A DNA stretch of 64,000 nt. It comes from a virus. Of the stretch, positions 23,227 to 46,694 are shown piece after piece; the stretch's first letter is position 1; each line of letters begins with the position of its first letter. The translations under genes were made by a program, and so were the position numbers. The notes beneath the pieces are model-generated. The model saw nothing but the letters and a program-made list of their open reading frames with translations, had not been told where the DNA came from and did no database searches. The stretch covers positions 46,208 to 110,207 of IMG/VR virus record IMGVR_UViG_3300027887_000007. One strand, 5' to 3'.

Positions 23227-23235
23227 CGCCCCTCC

Positions 23236-28235: not shown

Positions 28236-28303
28236 AACATTCCTTCGCTTCTACCCCTTGGCAAACCCCCAAGTCTGCAAGCGGTAGACCAGCGTTGGAC
28301 TAC

Positions 28304-28687: not shown

Positions 28688-28690
28688 GGG

Positions 28691-28852: not shown

Positions 28853-28908
28853 GTTGAATCTCCTTTTGCTGGCTTTAGGTGATGTGCAACTCCCGAATTC
28901 CGGCGCCA

Positions 28909-29076: not shown

Positions 29077-29077
29077 T

Positions 29078-29719: not shown

Positions 29720-29833
29720 ATTCGCCTCTCGGGGCGGCCTCGGTTCGAGGAGGGTAGATGTTACCTCTTGCCAAGACCGCCACTTCGGGAGTTTGCCGTC
29801 AGAGATAGGCTACTAAACCCTTGTCAAGCCCCC

Positions 29834-30169: not shown

Positions 30170-30183
30170 CTCGCCTCTCCTTG

Positions 30184-30510: not shown

Positions 30511-30686
30511 TTGAGTTTCCTCGTGGCGATGATGTACCGCCGCCTGACACTTCCCAACCACCATTCATAGATGGCGGCGAGAACCTTGCTCCTAGGACCA
30601 ACGTAGTCGATCTGAAAGATCGCAGCCCGTTGTTCCACGGCACGGGACGTGAAATCCTCAGGACCCAAGTGATACGCGAACTTCAT
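30483..30686 (-). CDS. Hypothetical protein
   Basis: 67 aa; ATGA overlap with the upstream GT gene. Confidence 0.4.
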   Translation of the reverse strand: MKFAYHLGPEDFTSRAVEQRAAIFQIDYVGPRSKVLAAIYEWWLGSVRRRYIIATRKLKCFYHSARS

Positions 30687-32677
30687 GACGGCACCTCAAG
30701 TACTCCAATGCCCATCGAGGGCCCCGGGCATCCGGGGTACTCGCCCGGGTCGAAAAACTCGTGGTGGACGAATCTCCCCTTTATTTCCTCCCACAGCCGG
30801 CTGACGAAAACCCCAAGGCTGCGGTGATAGTCGCTGTCGAGAATGTCATGGAAGACGATCAGACCGCCTGGTCGAACAGACGGACTGTAGGCCTCGAAAT
30901 CCTGTCTGACACCCTCATAGGTGTGGTCCCCGTCGATAAACAGAACGTCGACCTGTCCAGCCATTTCGGTAGCCCGGTGGATGATCGCCCAGTCGTGGCT
31001 GTCCCCCTCGATCTCGGTAACATGCTTTGCGAGCGGGGTCTCGTCGTACACCTGCCGGGGATAGTAGTGGGCGAGCTCGGTAAACCCGCCCCAGTCGAAT
31101 CTCTGGTCAACCGCATAGACCATGCCATCGTGAGGGGCGACCATCTTGGCCCAAAACATGGCGCTTCCACCCCTGTACACGCCTATCTCAAGTACCTTCT
31201 TGATCTTCCGTGCCGACAGTAGCTTCTGCAACGCCATGAGCTCGCCCGGCTTTTGGGCGCAAGGCCAGTCGATCTTGATGCCGGCGAACCCGTACCGCTC
31301 TCGGATGATCGCCCGGCAGCGCTCGAAATGCTCCGGCGTCATCCAAGAGGCGTGATTCTCTTGGTGAAAGATCGGGAAGTTTCCGATCATCAGGCTTCCG
31401 TTGTTCGGGAGCGGCCCTTCTTTCGGGACCTGAATGGTCTGGTACCCGGCGTCCTGAACCTTGAAGCAGAAGTCCATGTCCTCAAATCCGCCGGGATTGA
31501 AAGTCTCATCGAACAGACCGACCTTATCGAACATGTCCCGGCGAACGGCGGCGCAGAAAAACATGACGAACCAGCGGTCCACGTCCGATGCGTACCCCTT
31601 CAGTGGGCCGGTAACGCCGAAGCGCTTGGTCCTCAGAGGCTCAATCAGTGTCGGCAGCCATAGTCGCGCCGCTTCGGGATTGTTGTTTAGGATCACCGCA
31701 TCATCATTGATGAAGACGATGTACTCTCCACGGGAAGCCCGCACCCCCTCGTTGAGCGCTCTGGTAGCTCCGATCCTCTCTGGGAACCATACCAACCTGA
31801 ATGGATCCCCCAATGTCTGGGCGAAGTAGCGAGCATCCTCCTCCGCTCCATTTGCCACAATGACCACCTCACCGTTGGTCAGATCGGTGGCTGCAACGAT
31901 GCTCGACACGCAGGCCTGCAGATTCCTCGCCGAGCAAGTAGGGATGACTATCGAGAACTCGGCAGTCTTCTCCTTGAATCCGTACCGCTCGCGGAGGATG
32001 TTGAAGTTCCGGGCGAAGGTCTCCTGCCACTTCTCGGCCACCCCTTCGAGGGAATGCACTGTACCTTCGGCCGCATGGTAGATCGGGAACTCCCCCGACC
32101 AGAACTTCGGGTTAATGTTCCCATCCAGCTTATCGTGGGGAACCTGAACGATGCCGTACCCCTTCTGCTTCGCCTTCATGGCGAAGTCCATGTCTTCCCC
32201 GGCGCCCGGGTTGAAGCACTCGTCCAGCAGGCCGATCTCGTAGAACAGGGTGTGCCGGATCATGGCACAGAAGAAGAGGATGAACTCGCAGTTGGTTGCC
32301 GGGCTGCGCGTCTTGAGTGGTCCGGTGATGGCCACTTTCGGGTTCGAGAAAGGCGCCATCATCATGTCGATCCACTGGTTTTTGGACTGCGGGAGCAGGA
32401 TTACGTCGTCGTTCAGCAGGACGATGTACTCTCCGCGGCAGACCTTGATCCCCTCGTTGAGGGCCCGTGTGGCCCCGATCGGCTTGTCATAGTGAAGGTA
32501 CTCTACCGGAACGCCGACCTCGGTAAGTCCCTTGGCGAACCGGCGCGTTTCTTCCCCGGCGCCGTTTGCGACCACAACAATCTCGGTGTCAGTGAGATTG
32601 GTGTACTCAGCAATAGACGCCAGACATTGTTTCAACAGAGATAGGGTACACGTCGGTATGACGATGCTTAACTTCAT
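30683..32677 (-). CDS. Tandem GT2-GT2 glycosyltransferase fused to a class I SAM-dependent methyltransferase (Methyltransf_24-like)
   Basis: Two copies of SIVIPT...VVANG...GATRALNEG...GEYIVxxNDD...GLxDExFNPG.xEDMDF; C-terminal VLEIGVYRGGS, DVLFIDGDHTYEGV, PGGLIVFHD. Confidence 0.9.
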   Translation of the reverse strand: MKLSIVIPTCTLSLLKQCLASIAEYTNLTDTEIVVVANGAGEETRRFAKGLTEVGVPVEYLHYDKPIGATRALNEGIKVCRGEYIVLLNDDVILLPQSKNQWIDMMMAPFSNPKVAITGPLKTRSPATNCEFILFFCAMIRHTLFYEIGLLDECFNPGAGEDMDFAMKAKQKGYGIVQVPHDKLDGNINPKFWSGEFPIYHAAEGTVHSLEGVAEKWQETFARNFNILRERYGFKEKTAEFSIVIPTCSARNLQACVSSIVAATDLTNGEVVIVANGAEEDARYFAQTLGDPFRLVWFPERIGATRALNEGVRASRGEYIVFINDDAVILNNNPEAARLWLPTLIEPLRTKRFGVTGPLKGYASDVDRWFVMFFCAAVRRDMFDKVGLFDETFNPGGFEDMDFCFKVQDAGYQTIQVPKEGPLPNNGSLMIGNFPIFHQENHASWMTPEHFERCRAIIRERYGFAGIKIDWPCAQKPGELMALQKLLSARKIKKVLEIGVYRGGSAMFWAKMVAPHDGMVYAVDQRFDWGGFTELAHYYPRQVYDETPLAKHVTEIEGDSHDWAIIHRATEMAGQVDVLFIDGDHTYEGVRQDFEAYSPSVRPGGLIVFHDILDSDYHRSLGVFVSRLWEEIKGRFVHHEFFDPGEYPGCPGPSMGIGVLEVPS

Positions 32678-33947
32678 GCTTGGCAGGCTCCCGTTCCATC
32701 TTCTTTTCGTAGTCTAACAGACACCCGCGCCGCGGCTTGTTCTCCTTCAGCCAAGTGCGGAAGGCGACCTCTAGGATCCTAAATTCCGCCCGCGACAACC
32801 AGAGAGTATCTACCGTCAGCCCTCCGGTCCCATCCTTGCCAACCTGATAGTACTGATCGAAGTCGCGTGACATCCAAGTGATCCCATACTTCTCCGGGTT
32901 GTCCCACACGGGGGTCCCGGGGTAGGGGACGAAATTGGAGACGAAGTACTGGTCCGGATCGGCGTCGACGATGAACTTCCTCGTCTCCTCGAGCGTATCG
33001 GCGGTCTCGCCCGGGAATCCGATGACGAAGAAGGCCCGGGAGACGATCCCGTATTTCTTCGCCCATTCGATGACGTTGTAGTTGTCCTTGATCTTCGCTC
33101 CCTTGATCATCCGGTCAAGGATGTAGGGCGACCCGGATTCGATGCCCCATGCAACCTGTCGGCATCCGGCGTCGGCCAGCCGGCGGTAGACTTCTTCCGT
33201 ATCCGGCCCGGCCTTCCCAAGGCAGCGGAACGTGATACCAAGCGGCCCGATCAAGTCCAATATCGGAAAAAGTCGCTTCTTGTTCAGGGTGAAGATGTCG
33301 TCTTGGAAGTTGAACGCCCGGATCCCGTACTCGTCGATAACCCGCTTGATCATGTCGCGGACTTGCTCGGGCGTGGCGATTTTCTTGTTTCCGTCCAGCT
33401 TGTGCATCATGTCGAGCCCGCAGAATGCACAGTGGTAGGGACATCCGCGGGCTGTGAGCAGAGGGACCGACTTCTCCCCGTCGACAACCCGGTGGTAGGA
33501 GAAGACGTCCACGAGGTCGAACGCGGGGTAGATACCAGCGTCAACCTTCCCGTCCGACTTGATGATCCTGTGAAACTGCTTCCCGGTCGCAAGCTCAGCC
33601 ATTGGGGTTTCGCCGGCCCCGATCACTACATGATCGGCAAACAGGTATCCCTCCGGCATGGCCGATGGATTAGCTCCCCCGACAACGATCTTGGCCTTGG
33701 GTGAAACCCTGCGGATCTCCCGACACAAAGGCTCGACAAAGTTCATCGAGGTGCAATAGCTGGTGATCCCGTAGAGGTCGGCCTTCCCGATCGTAAAGCT
33801 GGTCAAACCAGACATGTCGTTCACACGCACATCGACATCCGGAACTGCCTTGCGAAGATGCGCGGCAATCATGAGAAGACCCAGAGGCGGGTCCAGCCTG
33901 TCATCTGTGGAGTTTGGGTGCGGCGGATGGATCAGCTCAACCTTCAT
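32607..33947 (-). CDS. Cobalamin-binding radical SAM enzyme (class B methyltransferase-like)
   Basis: PPLGLLMIAAHL and IVVGGANPS B12-binding domain; RGCPYHCAFC (CxxxCxxC); FQDDIF; GIESGS; FVIGFPGET; PYPGTP. Confidence 0.92.
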   Translation of the reverse strand: MKVELIHPPHPNSTDDRLDPPLGLLMIAAHLRKAVPDVDVRVNDMSGLTSFTIGKADLYGITSYCTSMNFVEPLCREIRRVSPKAKIVVGGANPSAMPEGYLFADHVVIGAGETPMAELATGKQFHRIIKSDGKVDAGIYPAFDLVDVFSYHRVVDGEKSVPLLTARGCPYHCAFCGLDMMHKLDGNKKIATPEQVRDMIKRVIDEYGIRAFNFQDDIFTLNKKRLFPILDLIGPLGITFRCLGKAGPDTEEVYRRLADAGCRQVAWGIESGSPYILDRMIKGAKIKDNYNVIEWAKKYGIVSRAFFVIGFPGETADTLEETRKFIVDADPDQYFVSNFVPYPGTPVWDNPEKYGITWMSRDFDQYYQVGKDGTGGLTVDTLWLSRAEFRILEVAFRTWLKENKPRRGCLLDYEKKMEREPAKHEVKHRHTDVYPISVETMSGVYC

Positions 33948-34417
33948 TACCCCCCCTTTGCGACCGTGTCGATCGCGGTGGCTACGGTTTCGGCGTCAAC
34001 CCAACAGTCCTCACGGTACTGTGCGTTGTCCCACCATTCCCAGATATTAGGGCGGATGTACCTGACTCCTTTGAGCAGGTTTACGTTGGCGGGATGACCA
34101 AACACGTAGGGGTCTTGCTGACCGAATACCACAACTCCGCGTTTTCCCTCGTAGGTTGCGAAGTGCTGGAAAAAGTTGTCGACCGACGCCCATGTCGCGC
34201 ATTCCTGCAGGGCTTTCGCAATGAGCTTCAGGCGCAGCCCCCAGCAGAATCCTTGGACGTTAGGAAACCGGTACTCGCCGGCCGCGCCGACCTGAATGAC
34301 ATGGTACCCCATGGCGACCAACAGTGAGATCACCGCCTCCCAGTGCGGGTAGTCCTTCGGGTTTTTCGCCCCGCTGCGGAGCGTCCTCGAGAACGGCGAG
34401 ACCATGATCTTCTGCAT
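33947..34417 (-). CDS. GT9 (heptosyltransferase-like, GT-B) C-terminal domain protein
   Basis: KDYPHW...VIQVG...VDNFFQHFA...GVVVFG..DP. Confidence 0.7.
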   Translation of the reverse strand: MQKIMVSPFSRTLRSGAKNPKDYPHWEAVISLLVAMGYHVIQVGAAGEYRFPNVQGFCWGLRLKLIAKALQECATWASVDNFFQHFATYEGKRGVVVFGQQDPYVFGHPANVNLLKGVRYIRPNIWEWWDNAQYREDCWVDAETVATAIDTVAKGG

Positions 34418-35463
34418 CAGGCAACTCCGTACAGCCGCTTGAACCCTTCAGCGATCGGGATCCTGAGATTCTTGTCACCACAGTACTTGTAGACGTCATA
34501 GTTCTCAAGGTTCCAAATCATCTGGCCTTCGGCAATCGAGATTTCCACGAAGTCCTTCGGTTCGTCCTCGAAGACCTCCGGGTAGCAGTCGGCCATGACG
34601 ATCTTCTTCCCGGTGGCTTTCTCGCGGACCAGCGGCCAGACCTCGTTTTTGAAGATGATGTGGTCGCCGAGGCCGCAGTTCAAGACGATCGGGACAATTT
34701 CAGTGGGATTGACGCCCCAGCGGAGCATACGCTCGACGAACTTCCGCTCGTCCGATGCCCAGTGGGACCCGTCCGTGTAGGACCGGATTCCGCCCTCCGG
34801 GTTGCGAAGGTGCCAAGTCTTGCAGACTGGCTGTATGAGGATCTTCCAGCCGGCGAGCTTCATCTCGTAGGTGAAGATAGTCTCCTCCCGATGGCCGACC
34901 GGACTCAGGTCGGTCGGGTAGTTCGGGGCAGCTTCCTTGCGAAACACAAACGAGCTGTAGAGGTGGTCAACCTCGTACGGCTGCTCGACCGTACTAGGGA
35001 ACCACTGCTCGTTCATGCCGATGTAGATGTCCTCGATCTTGTTCGAGGCGATCTTCGGCTTCCTCGGGATGTAGTTGAGTGGGTCGATGATCAGCCCACC
35101 GACAGCCCCGACCTCCGGCCTCGGGCGAATCACCCGCAGGAGGCACTCGAGGACGTTCGGCTCGGGCGCCTGGTCGTCGTCCAAACGCCAGATGAAGTCA
35201 GTCTTCGCCATGCCGAGGGCCCGCTGGTGGTTGGCGACTTGGCCGATCCGGGCCCCGAAGCTAACCTCCCACTCGATGCCCTTGATGCTCAGCAGTGAGA
35301 ATAGCCCCTTGTAAAGGCCGTTCTCGCGTAGGTCCCTCTGCTCTCCGTCATCGAAGATGATGAGTTTCTTCGGAAGGATGGTCTGGTTGCAGACCGCGGA
35401 GATCATGAGCGGAAGGGTGGTGAAGTACCGGTCCTTCGTGGAAACGGTTGCGGTTACTTGCAT
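34417..35463 (-). CDS. GT2 glycosyltransferase with a C-terminal GT9-like N-domain
   Basis: STKDR, IIFDDG, WRLDDD (DxD), HREET; C-terminal LNCGLGDHII...YPEVF. Confidence 0.8.
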   Translation of the reverse strand: MQVTATVSTKDRYFTTLPLMISAVCNQTILPKKLIIFDDGEQRDLRENGLYKGLFSLLSIKGIEWEVSFGARIGQVANHQRALGMAKTDFIWRLDDDQAPEPNVLECLLRVIRPRPEVGAVGGLIIDPLNYIPRKPKIASNKIEDIYIGMNEQWFPSTVEQPYEVDHLYSSFVFRKEAAPNYPTDLSPVGHREETIFTYEMKLAGWKILIQPVCKTWHLRNPEGGIRSYTDGSHWASDERKFVERMLRWGVNPTEIVPIVLNCGLGDHIIFKNEVWPLVREKATGKKIVMADCYPEVFEDEPKDFVEISIAEGQMIWNLENYDVYKYCGDKNLRIPIAEGFKRLYGVA

Positions 35464-35699
35464 CAGACAGGCACCCCCAGCTCCGTGAGGATCGCCTCGA
35501 TTCCGCCGACCTCCTTCAGGAGCTCAGCCCGCCTGTCCTGAAGCTCTTTGGGGTTGACCTTCTGCCGCTCCGGCATCTGGAGTTCTTCCCCGCTCTCCGG
35601 GTCGAATCGCTTGAAGACCAGCTCGTAGCCCTCCGGTCCGAACTGAATCTTCGCAAGTCCCTTCTCACGCACTCGGTTGAACCGTTTGATGTCGATCAT
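35463..35699 (-). CDS. Hypothetical protein
   Basis: 78 aa; KRFDPESGEE plus coiled coil; RBS GGAG. Confidence 0.65.
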   Translation of the reverse strand: MIDIKRFNRVREKGLAKIQFGPEGYELVFKRFDPESGEELQMPERQKVNPKELQDRRAELLKEVGGIEAILTELGVPV

Positions 35700-36168
35700 A
35701 AAATCTCCCTCCCGGTATCGCTATCCACCGACCGACATTTGCCGGCCAGATCCAATCGTTCTGCACTTGCGCCATATCCCACTTCTTCTTCTCTGCCTCA
35801 ATCTCGTTCTTGATTGACTCTACACTGACGCAGTCACCAGCGGGAAGCTCCCTCACGAAGCGGCAGGATGCGGAAACGCCCCCTTGAACGTAGATCGCCG
35901 GAAACGATCTGCAGACGAGCGGGCGCTTGTTGTAGACCAAGCAGGCTCCATCGCCGTAGTTCGGGCAAGGCCTAGTCACCATTTGGTACGCGGTAGTCAC
36001 AACAGGAAAGCCGACACCGAAGAGAGGTTTTACGCTTTCTGGGGGAAACTGCAGTGTTTCGTCCGGGCTGAGGTAGAGTCCAAACTCCCATCCGAACCTC
36101 GGCTCGACAAGATTCTGCTCCCGGCAGCAATCCCCGCAGTTGGTACACTTGAAGTCAACGGCTACCAT
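35665..36168 (-). CDS. YkgJ/FliB-like CxxCxxCC Fe-S/Zn protein
   Basis: FKCTNCGDCC...CP...CLVYNKRPLVCRSFP...C. Confidence 0.85.
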   Translation of the reverse strand: MVAVDFKCTNCGDCCREQNLVEPRFGWEFGLYLSPDETLQFPPESVKPLFGVGFPVVTTAYQMVTRPCPNYGDGACLVYNKRPLVCRSFPAIYVQGGVSASCRFVRELPAGDCVSVESIKNEIEAEKKKWDMAQVQNDWIWPANVGRWIAIPGGRFYDRHQTVQPSA

Positions 36169-39100
36169 TCAACGCCCCGATCACTGATTCTACAGATTCT
36201 TTCAGTGAGGCGTCCATCTGTTTTACAGCGTTGACCAAAATGAAGACCATCGGGGCGTAGTCGAAGATCAGTACGTCAGTCGGTTCTCCCTCGGCGTAGA
36301 GCTGGGCGTTCTCTATGCGCCAGATCGTCCGCGGGGCGACCGGCTCTACTTCCTGCGCGATGATGCCGACGCGGTCGATGTTGTCGTATCCCGGCTCCCA
36401 AAGCTGGTTGTACTTGAAAAATACGGGGTTGATCTTCTCTACAACCTCGATCCCGTCGGTAAACCGCTCGATCTCACGCTTCAGGCGGATATCGGACGAC
36501 TTTTTGAACCCCGACAGACCACTGTAACCGGAGAACCCAGAACCAGAGTAGCCGCTGTCACCCGAGTAGCCTGACCCGGACGAGTACCCAGAGTAGCCCG
36601 AGTGACCGCAGTACCCGGACATTCCGGAGTAGCCGCTGTAGCCGCTCTGCGGTGAGGAGTAGCCGCTCCGTCCTGAGACCCCGGAAATCCCCGAGTGACC
36701 GCAGTACCCGGATTTGCCTGGGAAGCCTGAGTACCCGCTATCCGTCGAGGAGTACCCGGATGTACCAGAGAAACCGGAATAGCCTGAGTAACCTGACGTT
36801 CCAAGACCAGCGCTTCCATACCCGGAGTAGGAGCTGTAGCCAGAGTACCCCGACACGGCGCTGTAGCCCGAGATCCCCGAATACCCTGATTCCCCGCTGT
36901 AGCCGGAGTAGCCAGACGCCTGACCTCCACCACCACCGCCAGATGTGACGAACCAACTTCTGGGAGATGGCGGGAGGAGACGAGGCGGGTCTTGCTGACT
37001 GCCGAAGTACGACTGGTACAGGCGCCAGACCTCATCGGCTGACAGCGCCCGATTCCAGAACTGTAGGTCTGATGCTCGGCACTCGTTCCACTCGAATGAG
37101 CCATAGTCTCTCGGGAGCCCGACACCGTAGCTCCAAGCTCTTTCACTGGCAAACGCAGTAGCCGAGCCGTGCGTCTGGGAATCCCAAAGCTTGCCGTCCA
37201 CGTAGACGTCTAGGTACCCATTGTCAGACGCGCTCCTGACCACCCAAGTAACTAGGACCCACCTGTTTGTCGGACACGGAGTACCGCCACAGACCATCGT
37301 GTGATCTTCTGTGACATACCCAAAGAAGTAGCCTTCGGTTGAAATTCCGACCACGGCATTTGTGTAGCCACCGGCCGGACCATCAAGAACATCGAACAAT
37401 GAGTTCCATTGAGTGGTCCCAAGATTCAGCACCCAGGCCGATACCGTGTACGCCCCATCCACCGCAATCGGAGTCCGTACGGTGTGAACCGGGGTATAGA
37501 AGTAGTACTGATTGGTGTAGCTGAAGGTGCCACCGAGCTGCGGCCCACGGGCGCCAACCGACCAGTAATCCGGTCCAGCCGGAGCCACGAAAATCTCCGG
37601 ACCTGCTACGTTGTGGAGATAGTTGCCAGATCCCTCGTTGAGAAGCAACCACACCCCAAGCCCTTGGTTGAGCGGGTGGTCTGGATTAGCTTTCCATCCA
37701 GCCCCGACCGGCTTGGTCGGAGGTTCTGATGGTATTGACAGCTTACGGGTGACCGCTTGACTGCCGGATGAAACGAACCACTTGCGCGGCGACGACGGGA
37801 GAAGGCGCGGATTGTCAGGTGTCCCCCACGGGTGCCGCTGTAGGTACAGCATCTCGTCGATGGACAAGATACGGTTCCAGATGGCGGTTTGAATGACCGG
37901 AGCGCTGTAATTGCCAACTCCGTTTGCCTTCCCACCTGCGATGTTGAACATGTCCGCGTCGTAGTCGTTGCGATAGTAGATCGGACCCAGTCCAGTCCCT
38001 ATATTCGCACTACGTCCAACGGCATAGATGTTGACATCCCCAGCGGCATTCCATGTTTGAAATGCAACAAACCCCATGCGTTGCTCAAACTCAGTCATGG
38101 TGAGGTCGGGACCATCCAGAGTGTGGTTGTTAGCCCCCCCATTTGAGTAGTAATCGCATGTCAGCCCATGAAGCGAACCTGTCCAACAGACCAGGCCGTA
38201 TGACGCCGATAGGCTCCCGGCGCCCCTAAATCCGCCAATCGCCACGTTCTGCTCGACAGATCCATAAAACACAAACTCCGTCATGCTCGTTCCTTCTGGA
38301 ACGTCCGAGAGCTGTCGCATCGACGTAGTATGTGGCCCGAAGCCCGTCGATTGTACGGCGTGGATCCCGCATCCTCTCCGCGTCTGGGCCCACCTAACAT
38401 TCATCCCGGTGTCAGGAGCATTAGGAATGCCGTAAAACAAAGTCATCCCAGTGCAATACTCCTTCAGTGACGCCCCGACTCCCTCCAAGAGCGGGTACCA
38501 CAACGTCATTCCATCGTGAACTGGGTGTTCCCTGTTTACCTGAAATTCGCTTCCAACCGGCTTTGTGAGCGTTTCATCGGGGATGATGAATGCCCTAGTA
38601 AGCCCGGAGTCTCCTCCTCCTGCCGAGTATCCGGACGACCCACTCAGTCCAGATCCACCCGAGTACCCAGATGGCGCCGTGTCGCCCGAATACCCAGAAA
38701 TGCCGGAGTACCCCGAGAACCCGCTGTCTCCGAACCCACGGTACCCGGAGAATCCAGAAGGCGCAGCGCCCGAGTAACCAGAAGACCCGTACCCCGAGTA
38801 CCCGGATGCTCCAGAGCATCCCTCCATACCGAACTGGAACACCCAGTTCTGCTCTGGACCTTCCTGAGCGGGGGCGAACCAAACCTCCGGCTGCGCTGGG
38901 ACAAAACGAGGATTTTCTGGGGTGCCAAACGGGTGAGAGTAGAGCTCTAGCCACTCCTCCGAGCTCAGTTCCCTGTCCCAGATTTGAATCCAGTAGATGT
39001 TAGCGCCAACCGTTCTGGTTAGCTGGGCTGCTGAGGCGTCGTTGCCAGCGATGACAAACCTACCCGTGCCACCTGTGTCGTAGTCTATCGTCCCGGCTGT

Positions 39101-40536: not shown

Positions 40537-40548
40537 TGCCCACCCCCG

Positions 40549-40992
40549 CTAGGCGGCAGGCGCGTATGTCTTCGGCCTCGCCTTGAGTACCCATCCAGCG
40601 GATAGGTTCTGATTGGTCCCGTTCTCGATGCTGAACTTGCACGTTTGCGAGATCGGCACGTTCGGCAGTGGGTAGGACGCAGATGCGCTCTGACCGCTCG
40701 GGATCACGAATGCCCCGACGAACAGGTACTTGTAGGTTGTTGCCGGGGCCGGCGCGTCCTCCGTCCCTCCGACGATGTCGAAATCTTGGCGATAGAGATT
40801 GACCGTGTAGTTGGCTCCCACGGCGGCGCCGAAGTCGCATGTCAGGACCAGATCAGCCAACGGGTAGTCCGAGGCGTTTGCCACCGCAAGCGAGGTGTCG
40901 TCGGCCGCGACGAATGCGTTTGACGCGGCCGATGCCCCGTTGGCCTCGAGAGTAACAGCTGAAGCGTATGTGTACTTTACCTCGTTTGCCAT
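40549..40992 (-). CDS. Beta-rich virion protein
   Basis: MANEVKYTY... behind GGGGAG; 147 aa. Confidence 0.65.
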   Translation of the reverse strand: MANEVKYTYASAVTLEANGASAASNAFVAADDTSLAVANASDYPLADLVLTCDFGAAVGANYTVNLYRQDFDIVGGTEDAPAPATTYKYLFVGAFVIPSGQSASASYPLPNVPISQTCKFSIENGTNQNLSAGWVLKARPKTYAPAA

Positions 40993-41000
40993 TTCTCCCC

Positions 41001-41297
41001 CTAGACAGCGAACGTGTTGACCGCGTTGGTGACGGCAGTGATGATCTGTCCGTCGGTACAACCAGTCGGATTGGCGAGTACGTTCGCATCGGCGATGACG
41101 GCCCACATGATCTTGTCCGTTGCGGATTCCGTATTGATCAGAGCATCCTTCGCCCATGTGAGCCGGGCAGCGTGATTTGCGGTCCCCGGATCCTCCGCGA
41201 GGATGTCGATCGAACACTTCGCTACCGCCGCGATCGTCCGACTCCGAAGCGTCTGGTTGGTGACTTTCGTGTTGTAGGCCTCAAGCAGCGTTGCCAT
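41001..41297 (-). CDS. Small helical fibre-associated protein
   Basis: 98 aa; EDPGTANHAARLTWA...TDGQIITAV. Confidence 0.65.
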   Translation of the reverse strand: MATLLEAYNTKVTNQTLRSRTIAAVAKCSIDILAEDPGTANHAARLTWAKDALINTESATDKIMWAVIADANVLANPTGCTDGQIITAVTNAVNTFAV

Positions 41298-41964
41298 TTT
41301 GTTTCTCCTCTAGCGCCTCATCTCTGAGGGCGTCTTTGTAAGTGTAGTCGTATGACCCGACGTGGATCATGAGCTTAGACAGATCGTGATCCACGTAGAG
41401 CTTGAAACCGGAGTCCATGGCTCGTTGAGAAAAGTAGTAGTCCTGATAGACGTACCGCCGATTCTGCTCGCTGTACCCCATGAGGAACCACGGGTGAGCC
41501 ATCTTCTCGTACACCTCCCGGGCCACCAGCGTTAACCCCTGCGGGAGCAACTTGACCTCCTCAAGCCCGGTTGACGTCTCCTTCGTGATAATCCTTTTGT
41601 CCTTCCCGGCCGCGGTGAACCTCTGACGCTTTCCTTTGTTGGTCGAGTAGTTCGCCCCAACGATCGGAAGCCGATGCCGGGCGAGACGGTGTATGGCGTC
41701 TGGAGGGAACCCCATGTCATCCTCGACGCTGCAAAAGTGCGTCCACCTCACCTGCTTGTCCTCCAAGTACTTTTCGACCAGGCGCTCGTAGTTCTCCGCA
41801 ATCCCGCTTCCTTCTGTCCCGTCGGGGACGAAGTACTGGGTGTCGCAATCCTCAAACACCCTAACGTGCGAGAAGTACATCGCCATTCTGGCGAGGCACA
41901 TCGCATACTTCAGCCGGCACAGACCAGTCGACGGCGTCAAAACGGCAACGGCGAAATCTCCCAT
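41281..41964 (-). CDS. GT-A fold (GT2-like) glycosyltransferase
   Basis: THFCSVEDDMGFP, IVGANY, GLTLVAREVYE..PWF, QDYYF...GFKLYVDHDLS..HVG; similar to 23479-24120. Confidence 0.75.
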   Translation of the reverse strand: MGDFAVAVLTPSTGLCRLKYAMCLARMAMYFSHVRVFEDCDTQYFVPDGTEGSGIAENYERLVEKYLEDKQVRWTHFCSVEDDMGFPPDAIHRLARHRLPIVGANYSTNKGKRQRFTAAGKDKRIITKETSTGLEEVKLLPQGLTLVAREVYEKMAHPWFLMGYSEQNRRYVYQDYYFSQRAMDSGFKLYVDHDLSKLMIHVGSYDYTYKDALRDEALEEKQNGNAA

Positions 41965-41972
41965 ATTCCACC

Positions 41973-42995
41973 TCAAAGCTGAGCGATCGAAGCGAGGAAC
42001 CGTTCTTTGTCTCCCGTAGACTCGAACTCCTCGGATAGACGCTTCAGCTCGAGTATCTTACCGTTCAACTCCTTGATAGCGTTAGTGAGAAGAAAGACCA
42101 GTGGCGCTACGTCGAACAGGATGATCTCGGTCTCCTCGCCCTCTTCGATAAGCTTGCCGGTGACCTTCCGGATGGTGTACGGAGCTAGAGCCTCGATCTC
42201 CTGACCGACGATCCCAACTTGGAGTACGTCGTCGTTCTTGGTCTCCCACAGGCCGTTCCACTTGAACGTGATCGGGTTGATCTTCCTCAGAACCTCTAGG
42301 CCGTCCTTGAATGCGCGGATGTCGCGCTTGAGTCGAATATCGGACGATGCCCCCGAGTATCCCGATCGGCCCGAATAGCCAGAAACTCCTGAAAATCCGC
42401 TTCGGCCCGAATAGCCAGAATAGCCTGAAGTCCCGCAGTACCCCGAAACTCCCGAATAGCCCGAGTAGCCTGAGCTGGAGTATCCCGAGATGCCAGAGTA
42501 TCCCGAGTAGCCTGAGCTGGAGTAACCCGACACCCCGCTGTACCCAGAAAAGCCTGACGTCCCGCAATAGCCGCTGACGCCTGAGAATCCGCTGTAGCCC
42601 GAGCTGGAGTAGCCACTTGTCCCCGAGAAACCAGATCCGCCACTACCGCCCGAGTACCCACTTTCGCCCGAGAAGCCGCTGACCCCGCTAAACCCCGAAA
42701 CCGCCGAGTACCCCGAGATCCCCGAATAACCCGAAGTTCCAGAAAATCCAGAAGTGGCCGCACCTGAGATCCCAGAGTACCCCGAGTATCCTGACGGACC
42801 AGAGTAGCCACTGTCGGTCGAACCCGGTCCGCTATAGCCTGATGGGCCACTGTAGCCGGAATCGCCCCCGCCGCCAGAGTAGCCCGAAATCCCTGAGTAG
42901 CCAGATGTCGACGAGTAGCCCGAATAGCCTGAAACCCCGGAGTACCCGGAGATCCCAGAATAACCACTCATCGACGCAATCTTGTCCCAGCCCAT
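41973..42995 (-). CDS. SGYSG collagen-like fibre protein with a C-terminal S74-like chaperone
   Basis: About 205 aa of (Gly-X-Ser)n followed by SSDIRLKRDI...GIVGQEIE. Confidence 0.85.
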   Translation of the reverse strand: MGWDKIASMSGYSGISGYSGVSGYSGYSSTSGYSGISGYSGGGGDSGYSGPSGYSGPGSTDSGYSGPSGYSGYSGISGAATSGFSGTSGYSGISGYSAVSGFSGVSGFSGESGYSGGSGGSGFSGTSGYSSSGYSGFSGVSGYCGTSGFSGYSGVSGYSSSGYSGYSGISGYSSSGYSGYSGVSGYCGTSGYSGYSGRSGFSGVSGYSGRSGYSGASSDIRLKRDIRAFKDGLEVLRKINPITFKWNGLWETKNDDVLQVGIVGQEIEALAPYTIRKVTGKLIEEGEETEIILFDVAPLVFLLTNAIKELNGKILELKRLSEEFESTGDKERFLASIAQL

Positions 42996-42996
42996 A

Positions 42997-43473
42997 TCAA
43001 CTCAGAAGGTAGACGTCACAGGTGTCAGTGTCTAGGTACAGGTCTCCAGCGACGGCGCCTGGGATCGACCCCGGAGCTCCAGATCCGGTGAACCACTGCG
43101 TTCCCCGAGCGCCCGAGTAGGCGCTGATCCCAGAGTACCCACTGTAGCCCGAGGTCCCCGGACTGGAGTAACCAGAAATCCCACTGTAGCCCGAGGGCGA
43201 GGAGTAGCCTGAGATTCCCGAATAGCCCGACGTCCCAGAGTATCCCGACGATGACGAGTACCCAGAAATCCCTGAGAATCCAGACAGGCTAGAGTATCCC
43301 GAAATCCCCGAATACCCAGAAGGCGACGAATAGCCACTAATTCCCGAGTAGCCCGAACTGGACGAGTATCCGCTGATCCCCGAATAGCCCGATACGCCGG
43401 AGTAGCCGGAGTAACCCGATCGGCCCGAGTAGCCTGAGTATCCGCTGATGTTGCTCTGCTTTGTCCAGCTCAT
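42997..43473 (-). CDS. SGYSG collagen-like fibre protein (short)
   Basis: MSWTKQSNI-(SGx)n-RGTQWFTGSGAP...GDLYLDTDTCDVYLLS. Confidence 0.85.
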   Translation of the reverse strand: MSWTKQSNISGYSGYSGRSGYSGYSGVSGYSGISGYSSSSGYSGISGYSSPSGYSGISGYSSLSGFSGISGYSSSSGYSGTSGYSGISGYSSPSGYSGISGYSSPGTSGYSGYSGISAYSGARGTQWFTGSGAPGSIPGAVAGDLYLDTDTCDVYLLS

Positions 43474-46145
43474 GCGTACTGGCCTCCGGTCGCTGACGTT
43501 CCAGACGAGTCTCCTGGGAAGTAGTTAGCGCCGCCGCCGTTTGTGTTGATCACGCCGTTCAGGGTTACTTGGTACCGGGAACCGGTTGCTGACCCGCTGT
43601 AGGTTGATGATGTGTCCTGAACCACTCCGGCCAAAGATGCGTATGCAAAGGCCGTAAACGCTGGAGTCCCAGTAATCGTCACTGTGTGGGCGGAAGTCTT
43701 GTTCACCCTGCCCTGGCTTGTTGCTACATGGGAGGTCGCACCGCCGCTGATTGCGTAGCTTCCTACGCAAGAGATTATCCCGTTGAATCCAGCATCGAGG
43801 TGGTAGACGGAGCAAGCGCCGAAATCGATGTTCTGGAACTTTATTGATGCAGCTTGAGCCCTTAAACCACCAAGCCCACCAGAGTTCGTGATCTTGAGAT
43901 CCTTGATGAACACAGGATTTACGGTTGGGCAACCAACAACCGCTATGTTGTACGCAGCCGTTGTGTTGATCACGACGTTTGCTGGCGTTGAGGCGTTCCC
44001 CTGAACCGTTAGAGTGGCAGTTCCAAGCCCATGAAGCAGGCCGATCTGCATCCCAGCCGTGTAGGTTCCATCTCCGATTTGTACTGTGACGTTATACCCG
44101 GCGATGTCCAGCTGCATGATCGAGTCAGCAGCCTTCTGCAGAGTGAGGAACGCACCACCGGCCGAGTCTGTCAGCCCATCGTTGCTGTCGTTCCCATCGG
44201 CGCGGACGTAGTAGGTCCGGTCTGCCGTTAGCCTAGTCCTGACGTTCAGCGGGTTGCTCGCCCCGGCCCCCTGCTGGTAAACGTCTCCAGTGTTGAGATC
44301 GAGGTAGAGGTCCCCTGTGGCCTCGCCACTAATCGTGCCTGGCGCTCCATCCCCCGTGTACCAGAATGACCCCCGGACTCCGGATCCTCCCGAGTAGGCG
44401 CTGATCCCAGAATATCCAGATGGGCCGCTGTAGCCAGATGGGCCCGAGTAGCCTGAAAATCCCGAAACTCCCGAATACCCCGAAATCCCCGAGTAGCCCG
44501 ATCGCCCGGAATACCCCGAGTAGCCTGAGTCGGAACTGTAGCCGGAAATGCCCGAGTAGCCAGATCGTCCCGAATAGCCCGAGTAGCCCGAATCTGAGCT
44601 GTAGCCAGATCTTCCCGAGTAGCCAGAATATCCCGAGTCAGAACTGTAGCCGGAGATTCCCGAGTACCCCGACCGGCCAGAATAGCCCGAGTAGCCGCTG
44701 TCGGAAGAGTACCCAGAAATCCCGCTGTAGCCGGAAATTCCCGAGTAAGCCGAAATCCCTGAGTAGCCTGATCGCCCAGAATAGCCCGAGTAGCCTGAAT
44801 CTGAACTGTAGCCCGAAATCCCTGAGTAGCCCGACGTGCCAGAATATCCGGAGGGCGACGAATAGCCGGAGATCCCAGAGTACCCAGAATCAGACGAGTA
44901 GCCTGAGATGCCGCTGAACCCGGAAATCCCAGAAAATCCTGAGTAGCCCGACCGGCCCGAATACCCACTGTAGCCCGAGGCTCCTTTGGCTCCCTGCATG
45001 GCGAACACAAGCATGTCCGCCTTGTTTAGGCCCGGAGTGGCCGCTCCGGACGCCCTGCGGAATCTCAGCTTGACCGTGTAGGTCCCTGCCGGGAGCTCGG
45101 CAGTCCTGTGGGTGATCGCCCCGATTCCGTAGTCGTTCGTTCCGGAGAGGTACCGCTGGTACTCGTCGTAGTCTACCCCGTCGATCTGTATTGCGATCCC
45201 GATGGTAGATGGAGCGCCGCCGCTCTGCGTCCCGATCTCGAAACTTGCCAGCGCGGCAATCTCGACCGCCTCTTCGGTCGTGATTGTCGTCGACATCCCG
45301 CTGACGTCCTCTAGCGTAGCGGACGTAGTGCCAACGGGACTGTCCAGCTCGACGTAAGAACTCGGGAGTTTTCCAGCAACGGCATCCGCGCCGGGAAGCC
45401 CTGAGTAGCCCGAGATCCCAGAGTAGGCGCTAATGCCTGAAAACCCCGAAACGGACGAGTAACCCGAGAGTCCCGAGTAACCCGAGTATCCACTGTCTCC
45501 CGGCCCCGAAAACCCTGAGTACCCAGACTGCCCAGCTCCCGAGTATCCAGAGTACCCTGAAAACCCGGATCCGCCCCCGGGGTCTCCCTTTTCTCCGGAG
45601 TAACCAGAGTATCCCGACGTTCCGGGGCTGGAGTACCCAGAGAATCCAGACTCCCCGCCGGCCGGGCCGGAAAAGCCACTGTAACCGGATGTGCCGGGGC
45701 TGGAGAAACCAGAAGTTCCGCTGTATCCGGAGTAACCCGATGTGCCGGGGCTTGAGTAGCCAGAGAATCCCGAGACCGAGATTCCCGAGTACCCTGAGAT
45801 GCCCGAGTCTCCGCTATAGCCAGAAGTGCCGGGGCTTGAGTACCCAGAAGGGCCGCTGTAACCCGATGGGCCTGAGTATCCGGAGGTCGATTCTCCCGAG
45901 TACCCGGATGGGCCGGAGTAGCCAGAGGTCGAGACCCCCGAGTATCCGGAGTAACCAGAAATGCCGTAACCGGAGTACCCGGAGGTCCCGAAAGTGTACG
46001 GAAGGGCGTTCCAGTTCTGAATGCCGTCGCCGAGCTTGATCTTGCCAGTGTCAAGCTCAACACCAACTTCGCCTTCAGCCAGAAGTGGATTCGCTGCGGT
46101 CCACTCTGCTGCGAGGCCGCGGCGAAGCTGGATGTGGACAGCCAT
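43470..46145 (-). CDS. SGYSG collagen-like fibre protein with an Mtd_N-like N-terminus and a C-terminal beta-helix-like domain
   Basis: IQLRRG.AAEWTAANPLLAEGEVGVELDTGKIKLGDG..WNALPY; two SGx tracts; RTYYVRADGNDSNDGL...AFLTLQKA...IGDGTY. Confidence 0.85.
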   Translation of the reverse strand: MAVHIQLRRGLAAEWTAANPLLAEGEVGVELDTGKIKLGDGIQNWNALPYTFGTSGYSGYGISGYSGYSGVSTSGYSGPSGYSGESTSGYSGPSGYSGPSGYSSPGTSGYSGDSGISGYSGISVSGFSGYSSPGTSGYSGYSGTSGFSSPGTSGYSGFSGPAGGESGFSGYSSPGTSGYSGYSGEKGDPGGGSGFSGYSGYSGAGQSGYSGFSGPGDSGYSGYSGLSGYSSVSGFSGISAYSGISGYSGLPGADAVAGKLPSSYVELDSPVGTTSATLEDVSGMSTTITTEEAVEIAALASFEIGTQSGGAPSTIGIAIQIDGVDYDEYQRYLSGTNDYGIGAITHRTAELPAGTYTVKLRFRRASGAATPGLNKADMLVFAMQGAKGASGYSGYSGRSGYSGFSGISGFSGISGYSSDSGYSGISGYSSPSGYSGTSGYSGISGYSSDSGYSGYSGRSGYSGISAYSGISGYSGISGYSSDSGYSGYSGRSGYSGISGYSSDSGYSGYSGRSGYSSDSGYSGYSGRSGYSGISGYSSDSGYSGYSGRSGYSGISGYSGVSGFSGYSGPSGYSGPSGYSGISAYSGGSGVRGSFWYTGDGAPGTISGEATGDLYLDLNTGDVYQQGAGASNPLNVRTRLTADRTYYVRADGNDSNDGLTDSAGGAFLTLQKAADSIMQLDIAGYNVTVQIGDGTYTAGMQIGLLHGLGTATLTVQGNASTPANVVINTTAAYNIAVVGCPTVNPVFIKDLKITNSGGLGGLRAQAASIKFQNIDFGACSVYHLDAGFNGIISCVGSYAISGGATSHVATSQGRVNKTSAHTVTITGTPAFTAFAYASLAGVVQDTSSTYSGSATGSRYQVTLNGVINTNGGGANYFPGDSSGTSATGGQYA

Positions 46146-46279
46146 TACACGCCCCCACCATCAATCGGGTCGATTCCGCCGTAGACGGAGGTTGGAGTAC
46201 CGCCGTCGACGTCTCCAAAGTTCTCAGACGTCCCCTCGCCGCCGCCGCCACCGATGATGATGCAGCTCTCTATCTCCAT
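46145..46279 (-). CDS. Small DGG-motif protein (44 aa, not in the ORF track)
   Basis: MEIESCIIIGGGGGEGTSENFGDVDGGTPTSVYGGIDPIDGGGV*; TAATG overlap with the fibre gene. Confidence 0.6.
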   Translation of the reverse strand: MEIESCIIIGGGGGEGTSENFGDVDGGTPTSVYGGIDPIDGGGV

Positions 46280-46686: not shown

Positions 46687-46694
46687 GTTTCCCC

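Follow-up and report, generated by a model that had tools for sequence, protein, structure and literature searches.

Fiber and enzyme genes share one late operon

What do glycosyltransferases, a methyltransferase, and a radical SAM enzyme act on when their genes lie among the fiber genes of a phage? The question is raised by an uncultured phage with a 110-kb genome, of which we analyzed a stretch of 64,000 nucleotides (the window). The genome carries a 15.5-kb late operon, at positions 30683-46145 of the window on the minus strand. It is a single, tightly coupled unit, with gene junctions of -71 to +12 nt except for two gaps of 136 and 282 nt, and its enzyme genes overlap fiber genes by 1-14 nt. 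Gene content on the minus strand was determined by ORF calls combined with Pfam, PHROGs, and NCBIfam searches (Table 1), which bore out nearly item by item the gene list of an earlier reading made without database searches (hereafter the sequence-only reading). That reading also correctly sited the operon between portal and scaffold; several small genes lie in between. The portal and zinc-ribbon proteins are kept in all relatives, and the scaffold-like protein is 56% identical to its counterpart in one relative. As part of what we consider the best explanation of this locus, the operon is probably an island of accessory genes set within the late structural part of the genome. The window contains no tRNA genes. 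A second island with glycosyltransferase, radical SAM, and methyltransferase genes is present elsewhere in the same genome.

Table 1. Features of the operon and its boundaries, in order of decreasing window position
Feature	Positions	Strand	Evidence or remark
Portal (SU10/P22 portal)	46695-48584	-	Pfam and PHROG matches; upstream boundary of island
Zinc-ribbon protein	46282-46698	-	Conserved; upstream boundary of island
col891	43470..46145	-	Pfam Collagen E 1.5e-29, Mtd_N E 4.9e-14
col158	42997..43473	-	Pfam Collagen E 3.5e-12; PHROG tail-fiber families
col340	41973..42995	-	Pfam Collagen E 5e-19; Peptidase_S74 E 3.8e-10 at 218-272
gt231, small GT-A-like	41281..41976	-	phrog_1574 E 1e-10; 4-nt overlap with col340
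p149, small protein	40549..40998	-	ORF could start at 41217
lamG263, single concanavalin-A-like lectin domain	39745..40536	-	Pfam Laminin_G_3 E 3.4e-9
col1196	36155..39745	-	Laminin_G_3 E 7.8e-14, Collagen E 2.9e-7, Peptidase_S74 E 1.2e-9
YkgJ/FliB-type CxxCxxCC metal-binding protein	35665..36168	-	PF03692 34.7 bits, cut-off 23
p78, small protein	35463..35699	-	One homolog, in L022
GT2 fusion, 348 aa, core cassette gene 1	34417..35463	-	Pfam GT2 E 1.8e-7
Stand-alone GT9-type C-lobe, 156 aa, core cassette gene 2	33947..34417	-	AF2, Foldseek, profile
B12-binding (class B) radical SAM	32607..33947	-	PF02310 58.5 bits, PF04055 81.3 bits, above cut-offs
GT2-GT2-methyltransferase, 664 aa	30683..32677	-	PF00535 two stretches E 1.3e-29; PF13578 E 5e-21; PF04989 E 3e-15
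p126, small head-module genes, scaffold-like, and capsid	26221..30564	-	Downstream boundary
Scaffold-like gene, 273 aa, coiled-coil	27414-28235	-	Conserved; just upstream of capsid gene
Major capsid gene	26221-27195	-	phrog_9953 major head protein, E 2e-33

Of the two small proteins in the operon, p149 has no family match in Pfam and PHROG searches and no counterpart in relatives. The homolog of p78 (32% identity over 75 aa) adjoins S74-bearing Gly-Tyr-Ser proteins.

The fibers carry proline-poor Gly-X-Ser tracts

Pfam matches and triplet statistics agree with the sequence-only reading that four proteins of the operon contain Gly-X-Ser tracts and that two of these end in S74 chaperones. In col891, an Mtd_N domain is followed by a first tract (residues ~60-255), a globular insert, a second tract (385-582), a short W..G.G.P..GDLYLD..TGDVY motif, and a C-terminal domain common to relatives; the last 290 aa share 37-38% identity with proteins of relatives that bear Pro-type collagen. 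col158 has a 10-aa N terminus, a Gly-X-Ser stretch of ~110 aa, and, at its C-terminal end, a 35-aa motif that in the relatives L010 and L021 sits after canonical GEKGDKGDPGERG collagen. In col340, the Gly-X-Ser rod (residues 11-217) leads directly into an S74 intramolecular chaperone, and in col1196 the tracts lie between LamG-type modules, with an S74 chaperone at the C-terminal end. Both S74 domains (Pfam Peptidase_S74, 40.3 and 38.8 bits, cut-off 22) start with SSDIRLKR, and this SD.R.K start may represent the Ser-Lys cleavage dyad. Head fibers, as proposed in the sequence-only reading, found no support here; Mtd_N, LamG, and S74 are domains that receptor-binding fibers typically carry.

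Runs of at least four Gly-X-Y triplets add up to 232 triplets, of which 211 (91%) have Ser at Y. At X, Tyr leads with 113 (49%), ahead of Ile, Phe, Val, Thr, and Arg; Pro makes up a few per cent. The periodicity is far beyond chance. Residues 385-582 of col891 form 66 triplets in one register, with Gly (58), Ser (7), or Ala (1) at position 1 and Ser at position 3 in 65 of the 66. Gly thus recurs at every third residue as in collagen (PF01391), with Pfam Collagen matches at E 1.5e-29 to 2.9e-7; the tracts are marked neither by Pro/Hyp-rich X and Y positions nor by the charged or Thr substitutes of bacterial collagens. Because Ser replaces Gly in register about every 4-9 triplets, a canonical triple helix would be weakened. 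Recent tandem expansion was considered as the origin of the tracts and rejected, DNA units of 36-108 nt matching only 66-84%.

The core cassette encodes a GT2 fusion and a separate GT9-type lobe

The GT2 fusion comprises a GT-A domain (residues 1-255) and a short Rossmann-like lobe (256-348). It matches Pfam GT2 (PF00535) with 31.7 bits (cut-off 23.3), and in the family alignment FDD and DDD motifs are invariant, as are G264, G266, and D267. The AF2 model (pLDDT 90) predicts a three-strand beta-alpha lobe at 256-348, in which the invariant GLGD motif follows strand 1, like MGD13 of WaaC. The GT-A domain matches the structures of GalNAc-T1 (Z 18.6) and SpsA (Z 18.5), which are tied and represent generic GT-A folds; it also filled the matches of a wide structure search (VIA-align), which thus bears on the GT-A domain and not on the lobe. 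A PDB profile search with the whole protein returned SpsA alone (E 0.18), and the C-terminal 95 aa gave no match in profile searches against PDB, WaaC, and WaaF. The GT9 N-domain that the sequence-only reading saw fused to GT2 is thus partly supported, by a predicted beta-alpha lobe with a GLGD motif and not by sequence profiles; because the lobe profile searches found nothing, the label rests on motif and position only.

The assignment of the 156-aa protein as a GT9 C-domain, on the other hand, was confirmed. Its AF2 model has a pLDDT of 94, and the top Foldseek matches are WaaF (1psw), WaaC (2gt1), and TibC (4rb4), with TMq values of 0.62-0.69. As a single sequence it has no Pfam or NCBIfam match, and its family profile matches WaaC at E 1.3e-4. 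In this alignment, the DDKHWP and SVDTG segments of WaaC line up with K21 and D80, the Lys and Asp of nucleotide-sugar binding, both invariant in the family. Model and profile mark the protein as the nucleotide-sugar-binding half of a GT-B enzyme. In every locus examined, the GT2 fusion and the GT9 C-lobe are adjacent ORFs in different frames, and the two proposed lobes of a GT9-type enzyme are accordingly not found in one polypeptide. An NCBIfam scan gave no match to TIGR04414 (the BAHT model) at E <=0.01 for either protein.

Further enzymes join the core cassette

Two further enzymes recur with the core cassette, in support of the sequence-only reading. The radical SAM enzyme belongs to class B and has invariant C169, C173, and C176 (CxxxCxxC); its NCBIfam matches are all far below cut-offs, the best being PhpK (133 bits versus a cut-off of 600). 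Its gene lies directly before the glycosyltransferase genes in 13 of 17 viral loci in an alignment-based scan, which was needed since a single-sequence scan led to one locus. It is an optional member of the cassette. The 664-aa protein scores 103.7 bits with PF00535 over two stretches, its C terminus is of the Methyltransf_24/CmcI type, rhamnosyl O-methyltransferase-like, and in 45 fetched loci homologs of this protein lie beside the core cassette.

The product of gt231, which is translationally coupled to col340, has no Pfam match. Its structural neighbors in the ESM Atlas (TM 0.79-0.90) are viral clusters, of which some have GT2 or Anp1 domains, and it is probably a member of a virus-only GT-A-like family. 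A gt231 paralog shows a very weak TAGT match (E 0.039).

All enzymes lack a transmembrane segment; membrane-bound enzymes were considered and rejected, the borderline hydrophobic stretches lying within well-modeled buried elements. No nucleotide-sugar synthesis gene was found among the genome ORFs scanned (part of all ORFs), so the donor sugars would have to come from the host.

The cassette accompanies Ser-type, not Thr-type, collagen

A DNA pattern scan of viral contigs, blind to Ser versus Thr codons, identified 63 Ser-type and 50 Thr-type loci. After dereplication, done at 80% DNA identity only so that shared ancestry inflates the statistics to some degree, the GT2 fusion or the GT9 C-lobe was present in 28 of 59 Ser-type and in none of 49 Thr-type clusters (Fisher p = 1e-9). 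In loci of at least 6 kb, the counts were 20 of 36 versus 0 of 36. The comparison with other collagens that the sequence-only reading had called for is therefore strongly positive. Among the best 80 GT2-fusion loci, 39 have at least 8 Ser-type triplets within their flanks, and no Pro- or Thr-type tract was seen in any of the 80. The cassette directly adjoins Gly-X-Ser genes in most positive loci, and in many the two are 466-900 nt apart.

In the DNA fetched, from records that are mostly 7-52% complete, the cassette is missing from about half of the Ser-type loci, and a Ser-type tract from a similar share of the cassette loci. Two of five long cassette records without a nearby tract have Gly-X-Ser genes elsewhere, and one of five records that seemed to contain fibers only has the cassette elsewhere; one record that is 77% complete contains the cassette and no Ser-type tract. 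No TibC-type enzyme (TIGR04414) was found in five fiber-positive, cassette-negative records (18-52% complete).

These comparative genomic data back the view that the enzymes and the Gly-X-Ser fibers form one functional unit. The sequence-only reading is partly supported overall: the functional unit gained support, and the inclusion of the YkgJ-like gene did not. Neither the fetched loci nor the viral-contig scan yielded a relative of this gene, and we do not count its product as part of the system.

Serine is the constant feature of the cassette-linked fibers

Across 79 cassette-positive loci, Ser occupies position 3 at a median of 86%, and Tyr makes up 6-63% of position 2; the median for Pro is 0%. 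Ser at Y thus appears to be the invariant of these fibers and Tyr at X dispensable, which favors Ser as the acceptor.

It is rather unlikely, in our view, that virion proteins are modified in some other way, i.e. on Tyr, through a chain started by the GT-A domain, or on another structural target with which the fiber genes merely travel. Tyr is the acceptor in some S-layer O-glycans and is the commonest X residue here, yet in several cassette-positive loci, of the Gly-Thr-Ser, Gly-Ser-Ser, or Gly-Phe-Ser type, it makes up only 6-15% of X, with Ser at 75-100% of Y. A start by the GT-A domain would suit its top structure match, a mucin-type polypeptide GalNAc-transferase, which is however tied with generic GT-A folds. 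Another target would suit both the cassette loci with no Gly-X-Ser tract nearby, roughly half of all, and the mycobacteriophages, whose capsid and tail-tube subunits are glycosylated (Freeman et al. 2023, as described in PMC12619734), and is harder to reconcile with the direct adjacency of cassette and Gly-X-Ser genes in most positive loci.

The cassette is essentially viral and independent of phage lineage

Cassette loci span a GC content of 24-67% and many phage types, and the association with Ser-type fibers is thus lineage-independent. Relatives of the GT2 fusion were found in at least 587 viral contigs versus 8 MAG contigs among 185,579 species genomes, i.e. the cassette is essentially viral. 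Within the family of this phage, loci with a 66-82% identical portal have Pro-type collagen fibers in the same slot and with the same flanking domains, canonical Pro-collagen being set in the same protein architecture. No cassette was found in the fetched flanks of these loci. It is absent genome-wide from four relatives that are 96-100% complete (this genome serving as positive control), three of which, taken whole, have no counterpart of the operon.

These distributions bear on the possibility that the enzymes target the host envelope (its LPS core, O-antigen, or capsule), which could block superinfection or stop progeny from sticking to debris, their place among fiber genes being due only to an accessory-gene hot spot. 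Such is the published view of glycosyltransferases in fiber-region islands of aquatic phages (PMC7029224, PMC10202952). GT9 enzymes are classically LPS-core heptosyltransferases, the GT2 matches include exopolysaccharide enzymes (all far below cut-off), and the island sits in a variable slot. An envelope target, however, predicts neither the partition between Ser-type (28 of 59) and Thr-type (0 of 49) clusters nor that relatives with Pro-collagen in this phage family should lack the cassette. The near absence of the enzyme family from 185,579 cellular genomes, a range of GC contents and phage types that leaves no single host envelope as common factor, the lack of membrane segments, and expression coupled to late fiber genes all speak against it as well, and we consider it unlikely.

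A reading in which the fibers are unmodified, Gly-X-Ser being a compositional variant of phage collagen, and the enzymes have DNA or a small molecule as their substrate is very improbable: phage glycosyltransferases do often modify DNA (reviewed in PMC12619734), and the second island and the TAGT match of the gt231 paralog could be read in this sense, but the Ser-specific, lineage-independent linkage would be left unexplained and the folds are of GT2 and GT9 types, not of known DNA glucosyltransferase families.

A proposed model for fiber modification

Because the cassette travels with Ser-type, never Thr-type, fibers in many unrelated phages, its enzymes most likely sugar-coat the Gly-X-Ser fibers. 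The operon probably encodes proline-free (Gly/Ser)-X-Ser fibers together with the soluble enzymes for their modification, which would take place in the host cytoplasm before or during assembly. The GT2 fusion and the separate GT9 C-lobe may associate into a bifunctional enzyme, in which the split heptosyltransferase-like GT-B half would put the first sugar on exposed position-3 serines, a step akin to that of TibC or Aah, modifying serines rather than threonines of repeat adhesins. The GT-A domains (the fused one, the two in the 664-aa protein, and perhaps gt231) could then extend the glycan, the CmcI-like domain could O-methylate it, and the B12 radical SAM enzyme may perform further tailoring, for which C-methylation of a sugar is the likeliest reaction. 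Trimeric rods with a sugar at up to every third residue would result. Two of the rods would be folded by the S74 chaperones, subsequently cleaved off, and the rods would join lectin-like LamG and other end domains serving adsorption.

In its most specific form, the proposal is of a glyco-collagen of the phages' own, in which every position-3 Ser of the proline-free (Gly/Ser)-X-Ser rod would be O-glycosylated, yielding a proteoglycan-like bottle-brush. Chains would be started by a virus-only enzyme in which GT2 is joined to the N-half of a heptosyltransferase-like GT-B that is naturally split and specific for Ser; they would be extended by GT2 domains and then O-methylated, with B12 radical SAM tailoring in some lineages. 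All of these parts together are a tentative proposition, possible but somewhat improbable as a whole. An initiating enzyme specific for Ser and not Thr would account for Gly-X-Ser and Gly-X-Thr phage collagens being separate worlds.

Comparison with known glycosylation systems

Collagen-like, hair-like Gly-X-Thr proteins that are O-glycosylated in the repeat are known from BclA of the Bacillus anthracis exosporium and BclA3/SgtA of C. difficile; such systems use dedicated glycosyltransferases and contain methylated deoxy-sugars. BclA differs in that its acceptor is Thr in Pro-rich GPT repeats, whereas the repeats here are Pro-free with Ser and the enzyme families are unrelated. Thr-type phage collagens never occur with this cassette (0 of 49 clusters). 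For the serine-rich repeat adhesins of Gram-positive cocci, a two-protein GT-B, GtfA/GtfB, initiates glycosylation and a string of GT-A enzymes follows, decorating hundreds of serines in a repetitive fibril of the same locus. These differ in their GT4-type families, in a substrate that is a secreted bacterial adhesin, and in having no Gly periodicity, and we detected no homology.

The closest solved protein-modifying relative of the 156-aa protein is TibC, a GT9-related enzyme that heptosylates Ser, not Thr (PMC4358343). The E. coli pairs TibC-TibA and Aah-AIDA-I (PDB 4RAP/4RB4) consist of a soluble GT-B related to GT9 heptosyltransferases that hyper-glycosylates numerous serines, and no threonines, of a repeat-rich surface protein encoded next to it. 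Besides its place near the top of the structure matches for the 156-aa protein, TibC has an N-lobe that is a reduced, non-classical Rossmann lobe (PMC4358343). In contrast to these pairs, the GT-B proposed here is split over two genes, its N-part is fused to GT2, and there is no TIGR04414 match, so that the likeness is in fold and proposed chemistry only. The substrate proposed here is a viral Gly-X-Ser rod rather than a beta-helix adhesin, and further glycosyltransferase, methyltransferase, and radical SAM enzymes are attached.

In mycobacteriophages, phage glycosyltransferases encoded among structural genes modify virion proteins (Freeman et al. 2023, PMC10527164, as cited in PMC12619734). 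The targets there are the C termini of capsid and tail-tube subunits, whereas we propose Gly-X-Ser fibers, and no collagen-like substrate, GT9-type enzyme, or radical SAM enzyme is known to take part.

Our literature search found no paper on collagen-like or Gly-Tyr-Ser phage fibers paired with these glycosyltransferases. To our knowledge, the documented cases of virion glycosylation are so far confined to giant viruses and a few mycobacteriophages. If the fibers are glycosylated, this would be a widespread (at least 587 viral contigs) and essentially virus-confined protein O-glycosylation in bacteriophages, and chemically a new way to make a collagen-type rod that lacks proline. Functions would also be provided for a large unannotated family of phage glycosyltransferases, now read as LPS- or DNA-modifying, and for a family of orphan B12 radical SAM enzymes with more than 1,700 members. 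There would be consequences, too, for how environmental phages adsorb, how stable their virions are, and how immune or defense systems recognize them.

A cultured phage carries a minimal cassette

Methylophilaceae phage P19250A (KX815270) is the only record with a GT2 fusion (41% identity) among 50,697 GenBank phages. Its genes 0023-0026 encode a 1201-aa protein, followed by a methyltransferase, the GT2 fusion, and the GT9 C-lobe. The 1201-aa protein contains 281 Gly-X-Y triplets, with Ser in 225. P19250A differs from the phage described here in its size (38.7 kb), in the lack of the radical SAM enzyme, S74, and LamG, and in the position of its fiber gene, which lies behind the tail genes and whose product bears the annotation of a tape-measure protein. 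It thus represents a minimal cassette in a cultured phage-host pair, the host being a freshwater Methylophilaceae strain, which makes the idea directly testable.

Organization of the fibre operon

The source record (110,207 bp, a single record judged 100% complete, with the window as its bases 46208-110207) carries genes for a large terminase and an SU10/P22-type portal; its major capsid protein is only ~28% identical to the counterpart in Myxococcus phage Mx8. This makes it an uncultured tailed phage without a close cultured relative. Every gene of the fibre operon is on the minus strand, with junctions of -71 to +12 nt, except at two places, where gaps of 136 nt and 282 nt occur. Among the loci examined, this is the fullest form of the system, with four fibre genes, five glycosyltransferase (GT)-type domains, an O-methyltransferase, a radical SAM enzyme, and a PF03692 protein. 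Relatives of the last were looked for in the fetched loci and in viral contigs, and no other locus has one. The gene directly 3' of the portal gene encodes a small zinc-ribbon protein with two CxxC pairs, and all relatives have this protein.

Coordinates and content of the features discussed (window positions unless marked genome; numbered rows in order of transcription; gt231, p149, p78, and p126 are small proteins of the operon or its flank)
Feature	Coordinates	Strand	Content
Operon	30683-46145	-	fibre genes and enzymes
1	46282-46698 (zinc-ribbon)	-	portal, zinc-ribbon protein
2		-	col891: Mtd_N, two Gly-X-Ser tracts, C-terminal domain
3		-	col158, col340 (Gly-X-Ser rod and S74 chaperone)
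4		-	gt231, p149, LamG protein
5		-	col1196: LamG modules, Gly-X-Ser tracts, S74 chaperone
6		-	PF03692 (YkgJ/FliB-type) protein, p78
7	34417-35463; 33947-34417	-	GT2 fused to short Rossmann lobe (348 aa); 156-aa protein
8	30683-32677 (fusion)	-	B12-binding radical SAM enzyme, GT2-GT2-methyltransferase fusion (664 aa)
Downstream of operon		-	p126, several small head-module genes, conserved coiled-coil scaffold-like gene, capsid gene
gt231 paralogue	23479-24120	-	213 aa; phrog_1574 / phrog_12406 glycosyltransferase
Structural-region block	15277-23263	-	about nine genes, 160-370 aa, including phrog_2448 and phrog_6368
Long ORF	2-5971 (genome 34320-52178)	-	5952 codons
Second modification island	genome 13223-18946 (outside window)	+	GT2, 221-aa protein, 330-aa non-B12 radical SAM, methyltransferase, 294-aa protein, GT2_4, GT2_3-like gene
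Integrase-family gene	genome 12496-13086		short 196-aa phage-integrase-family protein
P19250A_0023	KX815270, 4753-8358 of fetched locus L222		1201-aa Gly-X-Ser fibre

Serine dominates position 3 of the fibre repeats

The four collagen-like fibre proteins (col891, col158, col340, and col1196) together contain 232 Gly-X-Y triplets, counting runs of at least four triplets. Ser fills Y in 91% of these triplets; at X, Tyr leads with 49%, ahead of Ile, Phe, Val, Thr, and Arg. Pro is rare. Residues 385-582 of col891 form 66 triplets in a single unbroken register, in which position 3 is Ser in 65 whereas position 1 is Gly in only 58, indicating that serine is kept more strictly than glycine. In-register Ser-Asp-Ser or Ser-Pro-Ser triplets recur every 4-9 units; these regular Gly-to-Ser replacements bear on any structural model and would loosen a canonical triple helix. 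At the DNA level the repeats are old, with units of 36-108 nt matching one another at only 66-84%. An SSDIRLKR motif, which we take to be the S74 cleavage dyad, is present at the S74 domain of col340, a protein that after the expected self-cleavage would be almost purely rod (~207 residues). These proteins need not sit on the head; domains such as Mtd_N, LamG, and S74 are characteristic of fibres that bind receptors.

The cassette accompanies Ser-type but not Thr-type fibres

Viral contigs were searched with a DNA pattern for Gly-Tyr-Ser or Gly-Tyr-Thr repeats. At least 120 stretches match; of the loci formed by those listed, 63 are Ser-type and 50 are Thr-type, so that the same search supplies its own control. 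Once the loci had been dereplicated (80% DNA identity), the core cassette (the 348-aa GT2 fusion or the 156-aa protein) is found in 28/59 Ser-type and 0/49 Thr-type clusters among the matches listed (Fisher p = 1e-9), bearing out the co-occurrence of enzymes and fibres proposed by the sequence-only reading. When only listed loci of at least 6 kb are considered, the counts are 20/36 and 0/36. Within loci L024-L141 (e.g. L104, L118, and L133) there is another large class of collagens from phages and giant viruses that are poor in proline, built on Gly-Tyr-Thr or Gly-Pro-Thr, which among the matches listed is as frequent as the Ser type and never has the cassette alongside.

An alignment search with the GT2 fusion reached at least 587 viral contigs. 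In the best 80 of these, 39 loci have at least eight Ser-type triplets in their flanks, in many cases at a distance of 466-900 nt, and none has Pro- or Thr-type tracts there. Many cassette or fibre records are fragments. Two of five long cassette records scored as tract-negative carry Gly-X-Ser genes 7-35 kb away (a control pattern gave zero matches), and one of five fibre-positive records lacking the cassette in the fetched stretch has it elsewhere, the other four being 18-26% complete.

The cassette encodes a putative split GT-B enzyme

The 156-aa protein has no match in Pfam, PHROG, or NCBIfam. The best matches of its AlphaFold model, built from 12 homologues (pLDDT 94), are the C-terminal lobes of two GT9 heptosyltransferases, WaaF and WaaC, and of TibC, a heptosyltransferase acting on an adhesin. 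The family profile reaches WaaC by sequence as well (E 1.3e-4), and the invariant Lys21 and Asp80 align with the DDKHWP and SVDTG segments of WaaC. The label of GT9 C-domain previously given to this protein is thus correct. A GT-A domain makes up residues 1-255 of the 348-aa protein, and its FDD and DDD motifs are invariant. Its top structural matches, polypeptide GalNAc-transferase T1 (Z 18.6) and SpsA (Z 18.5), score no better than other GT-A folds tied with them, and specificity is not readable from them. In the model, the last 95 residues form a beta-alpha lobe of three strands, the first of which is followed by an invariant GLGD; the MGD13 catalytic loop is placed likewise at the beginning of WaaC. 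The earlier assignment of the lobe as a GT9 N-domain is plausible; profile comparisons with PDB, WaaC, and WaaF gave no significant similarity. In every locus examined the two genes sit side by side in different reading frames, so the split between them is an old one that has been kept.

The 664-aa protein combines two GT2 domains with a CmcI / rhamnosyl-O-methyltransferase-like domain. The radical SAM enzyme has a B12-binding domain and a CxxxCxxC cluster and reaches no characterised subfamily at NCBIfam cut-offs; its family has >1,700 metagenomic members. At 13 of its 17 viral loci the order is fixed (radical SAM, GT2 domains with or without methyltransferase, GT2 fusion, 156-aa gene) and Gly-X-Ser tracts flank it at 10 of the 17, making it an optional yet genuine cassette member. 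gt231 is part of a family confined to viruses, whose predicted fold is GT-A-like. None of the enzymes has membrane segments. The 213-aa gt231 paralogue, with weak Anp1 and TAGT matches, lies inside the structural module; since it is 42-47% conserved in relatives without Gly-X-Ser fibres, it must have another target.

The operon is absent from the relatives compared

Twenty related loci with portals 66-82% identical were fetched. Their portal-to-capsid interval is 3-8 kb, compared to 19.5 kb here. Where fibre genes occupy this slot, the C-terminal domain of col891 (37-38% identity) and the C-terminal motif of col158 are shared, but the stalks are canonical Pro-rich collagen and the flanks fetched contain no cassette. 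A genome-wide search of four relatives (96-100% complete) found no cassette, while the present genome, used as positive control, gave a match. When three of the four were compared gene by gene, the whole block 30683-46145 had no counterpart.

A proposed model for fibre glycosylation

We consider it probable that these soluble enzymes, made with the late fibre genes, glycosylate exposed position-3 serines in the cytoplasm. The split GT-B would start the chain on fibre serines and the GT-A domains would then lengthen it, the CmcI-like domain would O-methylate, and the B12 radical SAM enzyme would tailor a sugar, most likely via C-methylation. The exact order of steps and the donor sugar are much less certain. 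Of the solved relatives of the GT9-type lobe that modify proteins, the closest is TibC, which puts many heptoses on serines, not threonines, of an adjacently encoded repeat adhesin (PMC4358343). This choice of acceptor matches the Ser-not-Thr fibre pattern of the phage cassette, and we propose initiation by the split GT-B for this reason.

There is a small chance that tyrosine is the acceptor, that a GT-A domain initiates, or that another virion protein is the target. Across 79 cassette-positive loci the median of position-3 Ser is 86%, while position-2 Tyr can be as low as 6%, in Gly-Thr-Ser and Gly-Ser-Ser types, and as high as 63%; serine, not tyrosine, is thus the conserved partner of the enzymes. 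Modification of the host envelope, the usual published view of such genes (PMC7029224, PMC10202952), has a slimmer chance, as it explains neither the Ser-specific, lineage-independent linkage nor why cellular genomes almost lack the enzyme. Among one genome each from 185,579 prokaryote species there are eight cassette loci, all on MAG contigs, two of which show large Gly-X-Ser genes beside the cassette; the GT2-fusion family is almost purely viral. L260 and L261, with radical SAM and GT cassette on contigs binned as Aenigmatarchaeota and Anaerolineales MAGs, are most likely mis-binned phage contigs. That the enzymes modify DNA is unlikely.

There are precedents for virion glycosylation, for glycosylated collagen-like proteins, and for serine-heptosylated repeat proteins, each on its own. 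The cassette enzyme family, the Gly-X-Ser substrate class, and the combination of the two are not known from earlier work; we found no paper on Gly-Tyr-Ser phage fibres or their tie to glycosyltransferases. Among 50,697 GenBank phages, the cassette occurs only in Methylophilaceae phage P19250A, where a methyltransferase, the GT2 fusion, and the 156-aa gene follow P19250A_0023. The latter, with 281 Gly-X-Y triplets (Ser at Y in 225), is annotated as 'tail length tape-measure protein', which looks like a mis-annotation. A neighbouring 'PE family protein' is Gly-rich, yet not of the Gly-X-Ser type.

Other regions of the genome

Every gene of the second modification island except the last is absent from three complete relatives, so that the part they lack spans genome 13223-18290. 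Weak homologues of its GT2 and radical SAM genes occur in a single further contig with the cassette (L173). The adjoining integrase-family protein is 55-57% identical in relatives; the phage may be temperate, or the protein may serve another recombination step. The structural-region block, which has no counterpart in the three complete relatives, is probably a second host-range island. The 5952-codon ORF, only partly conserved in relatives, presumably encodes a giant virion or tail protein.
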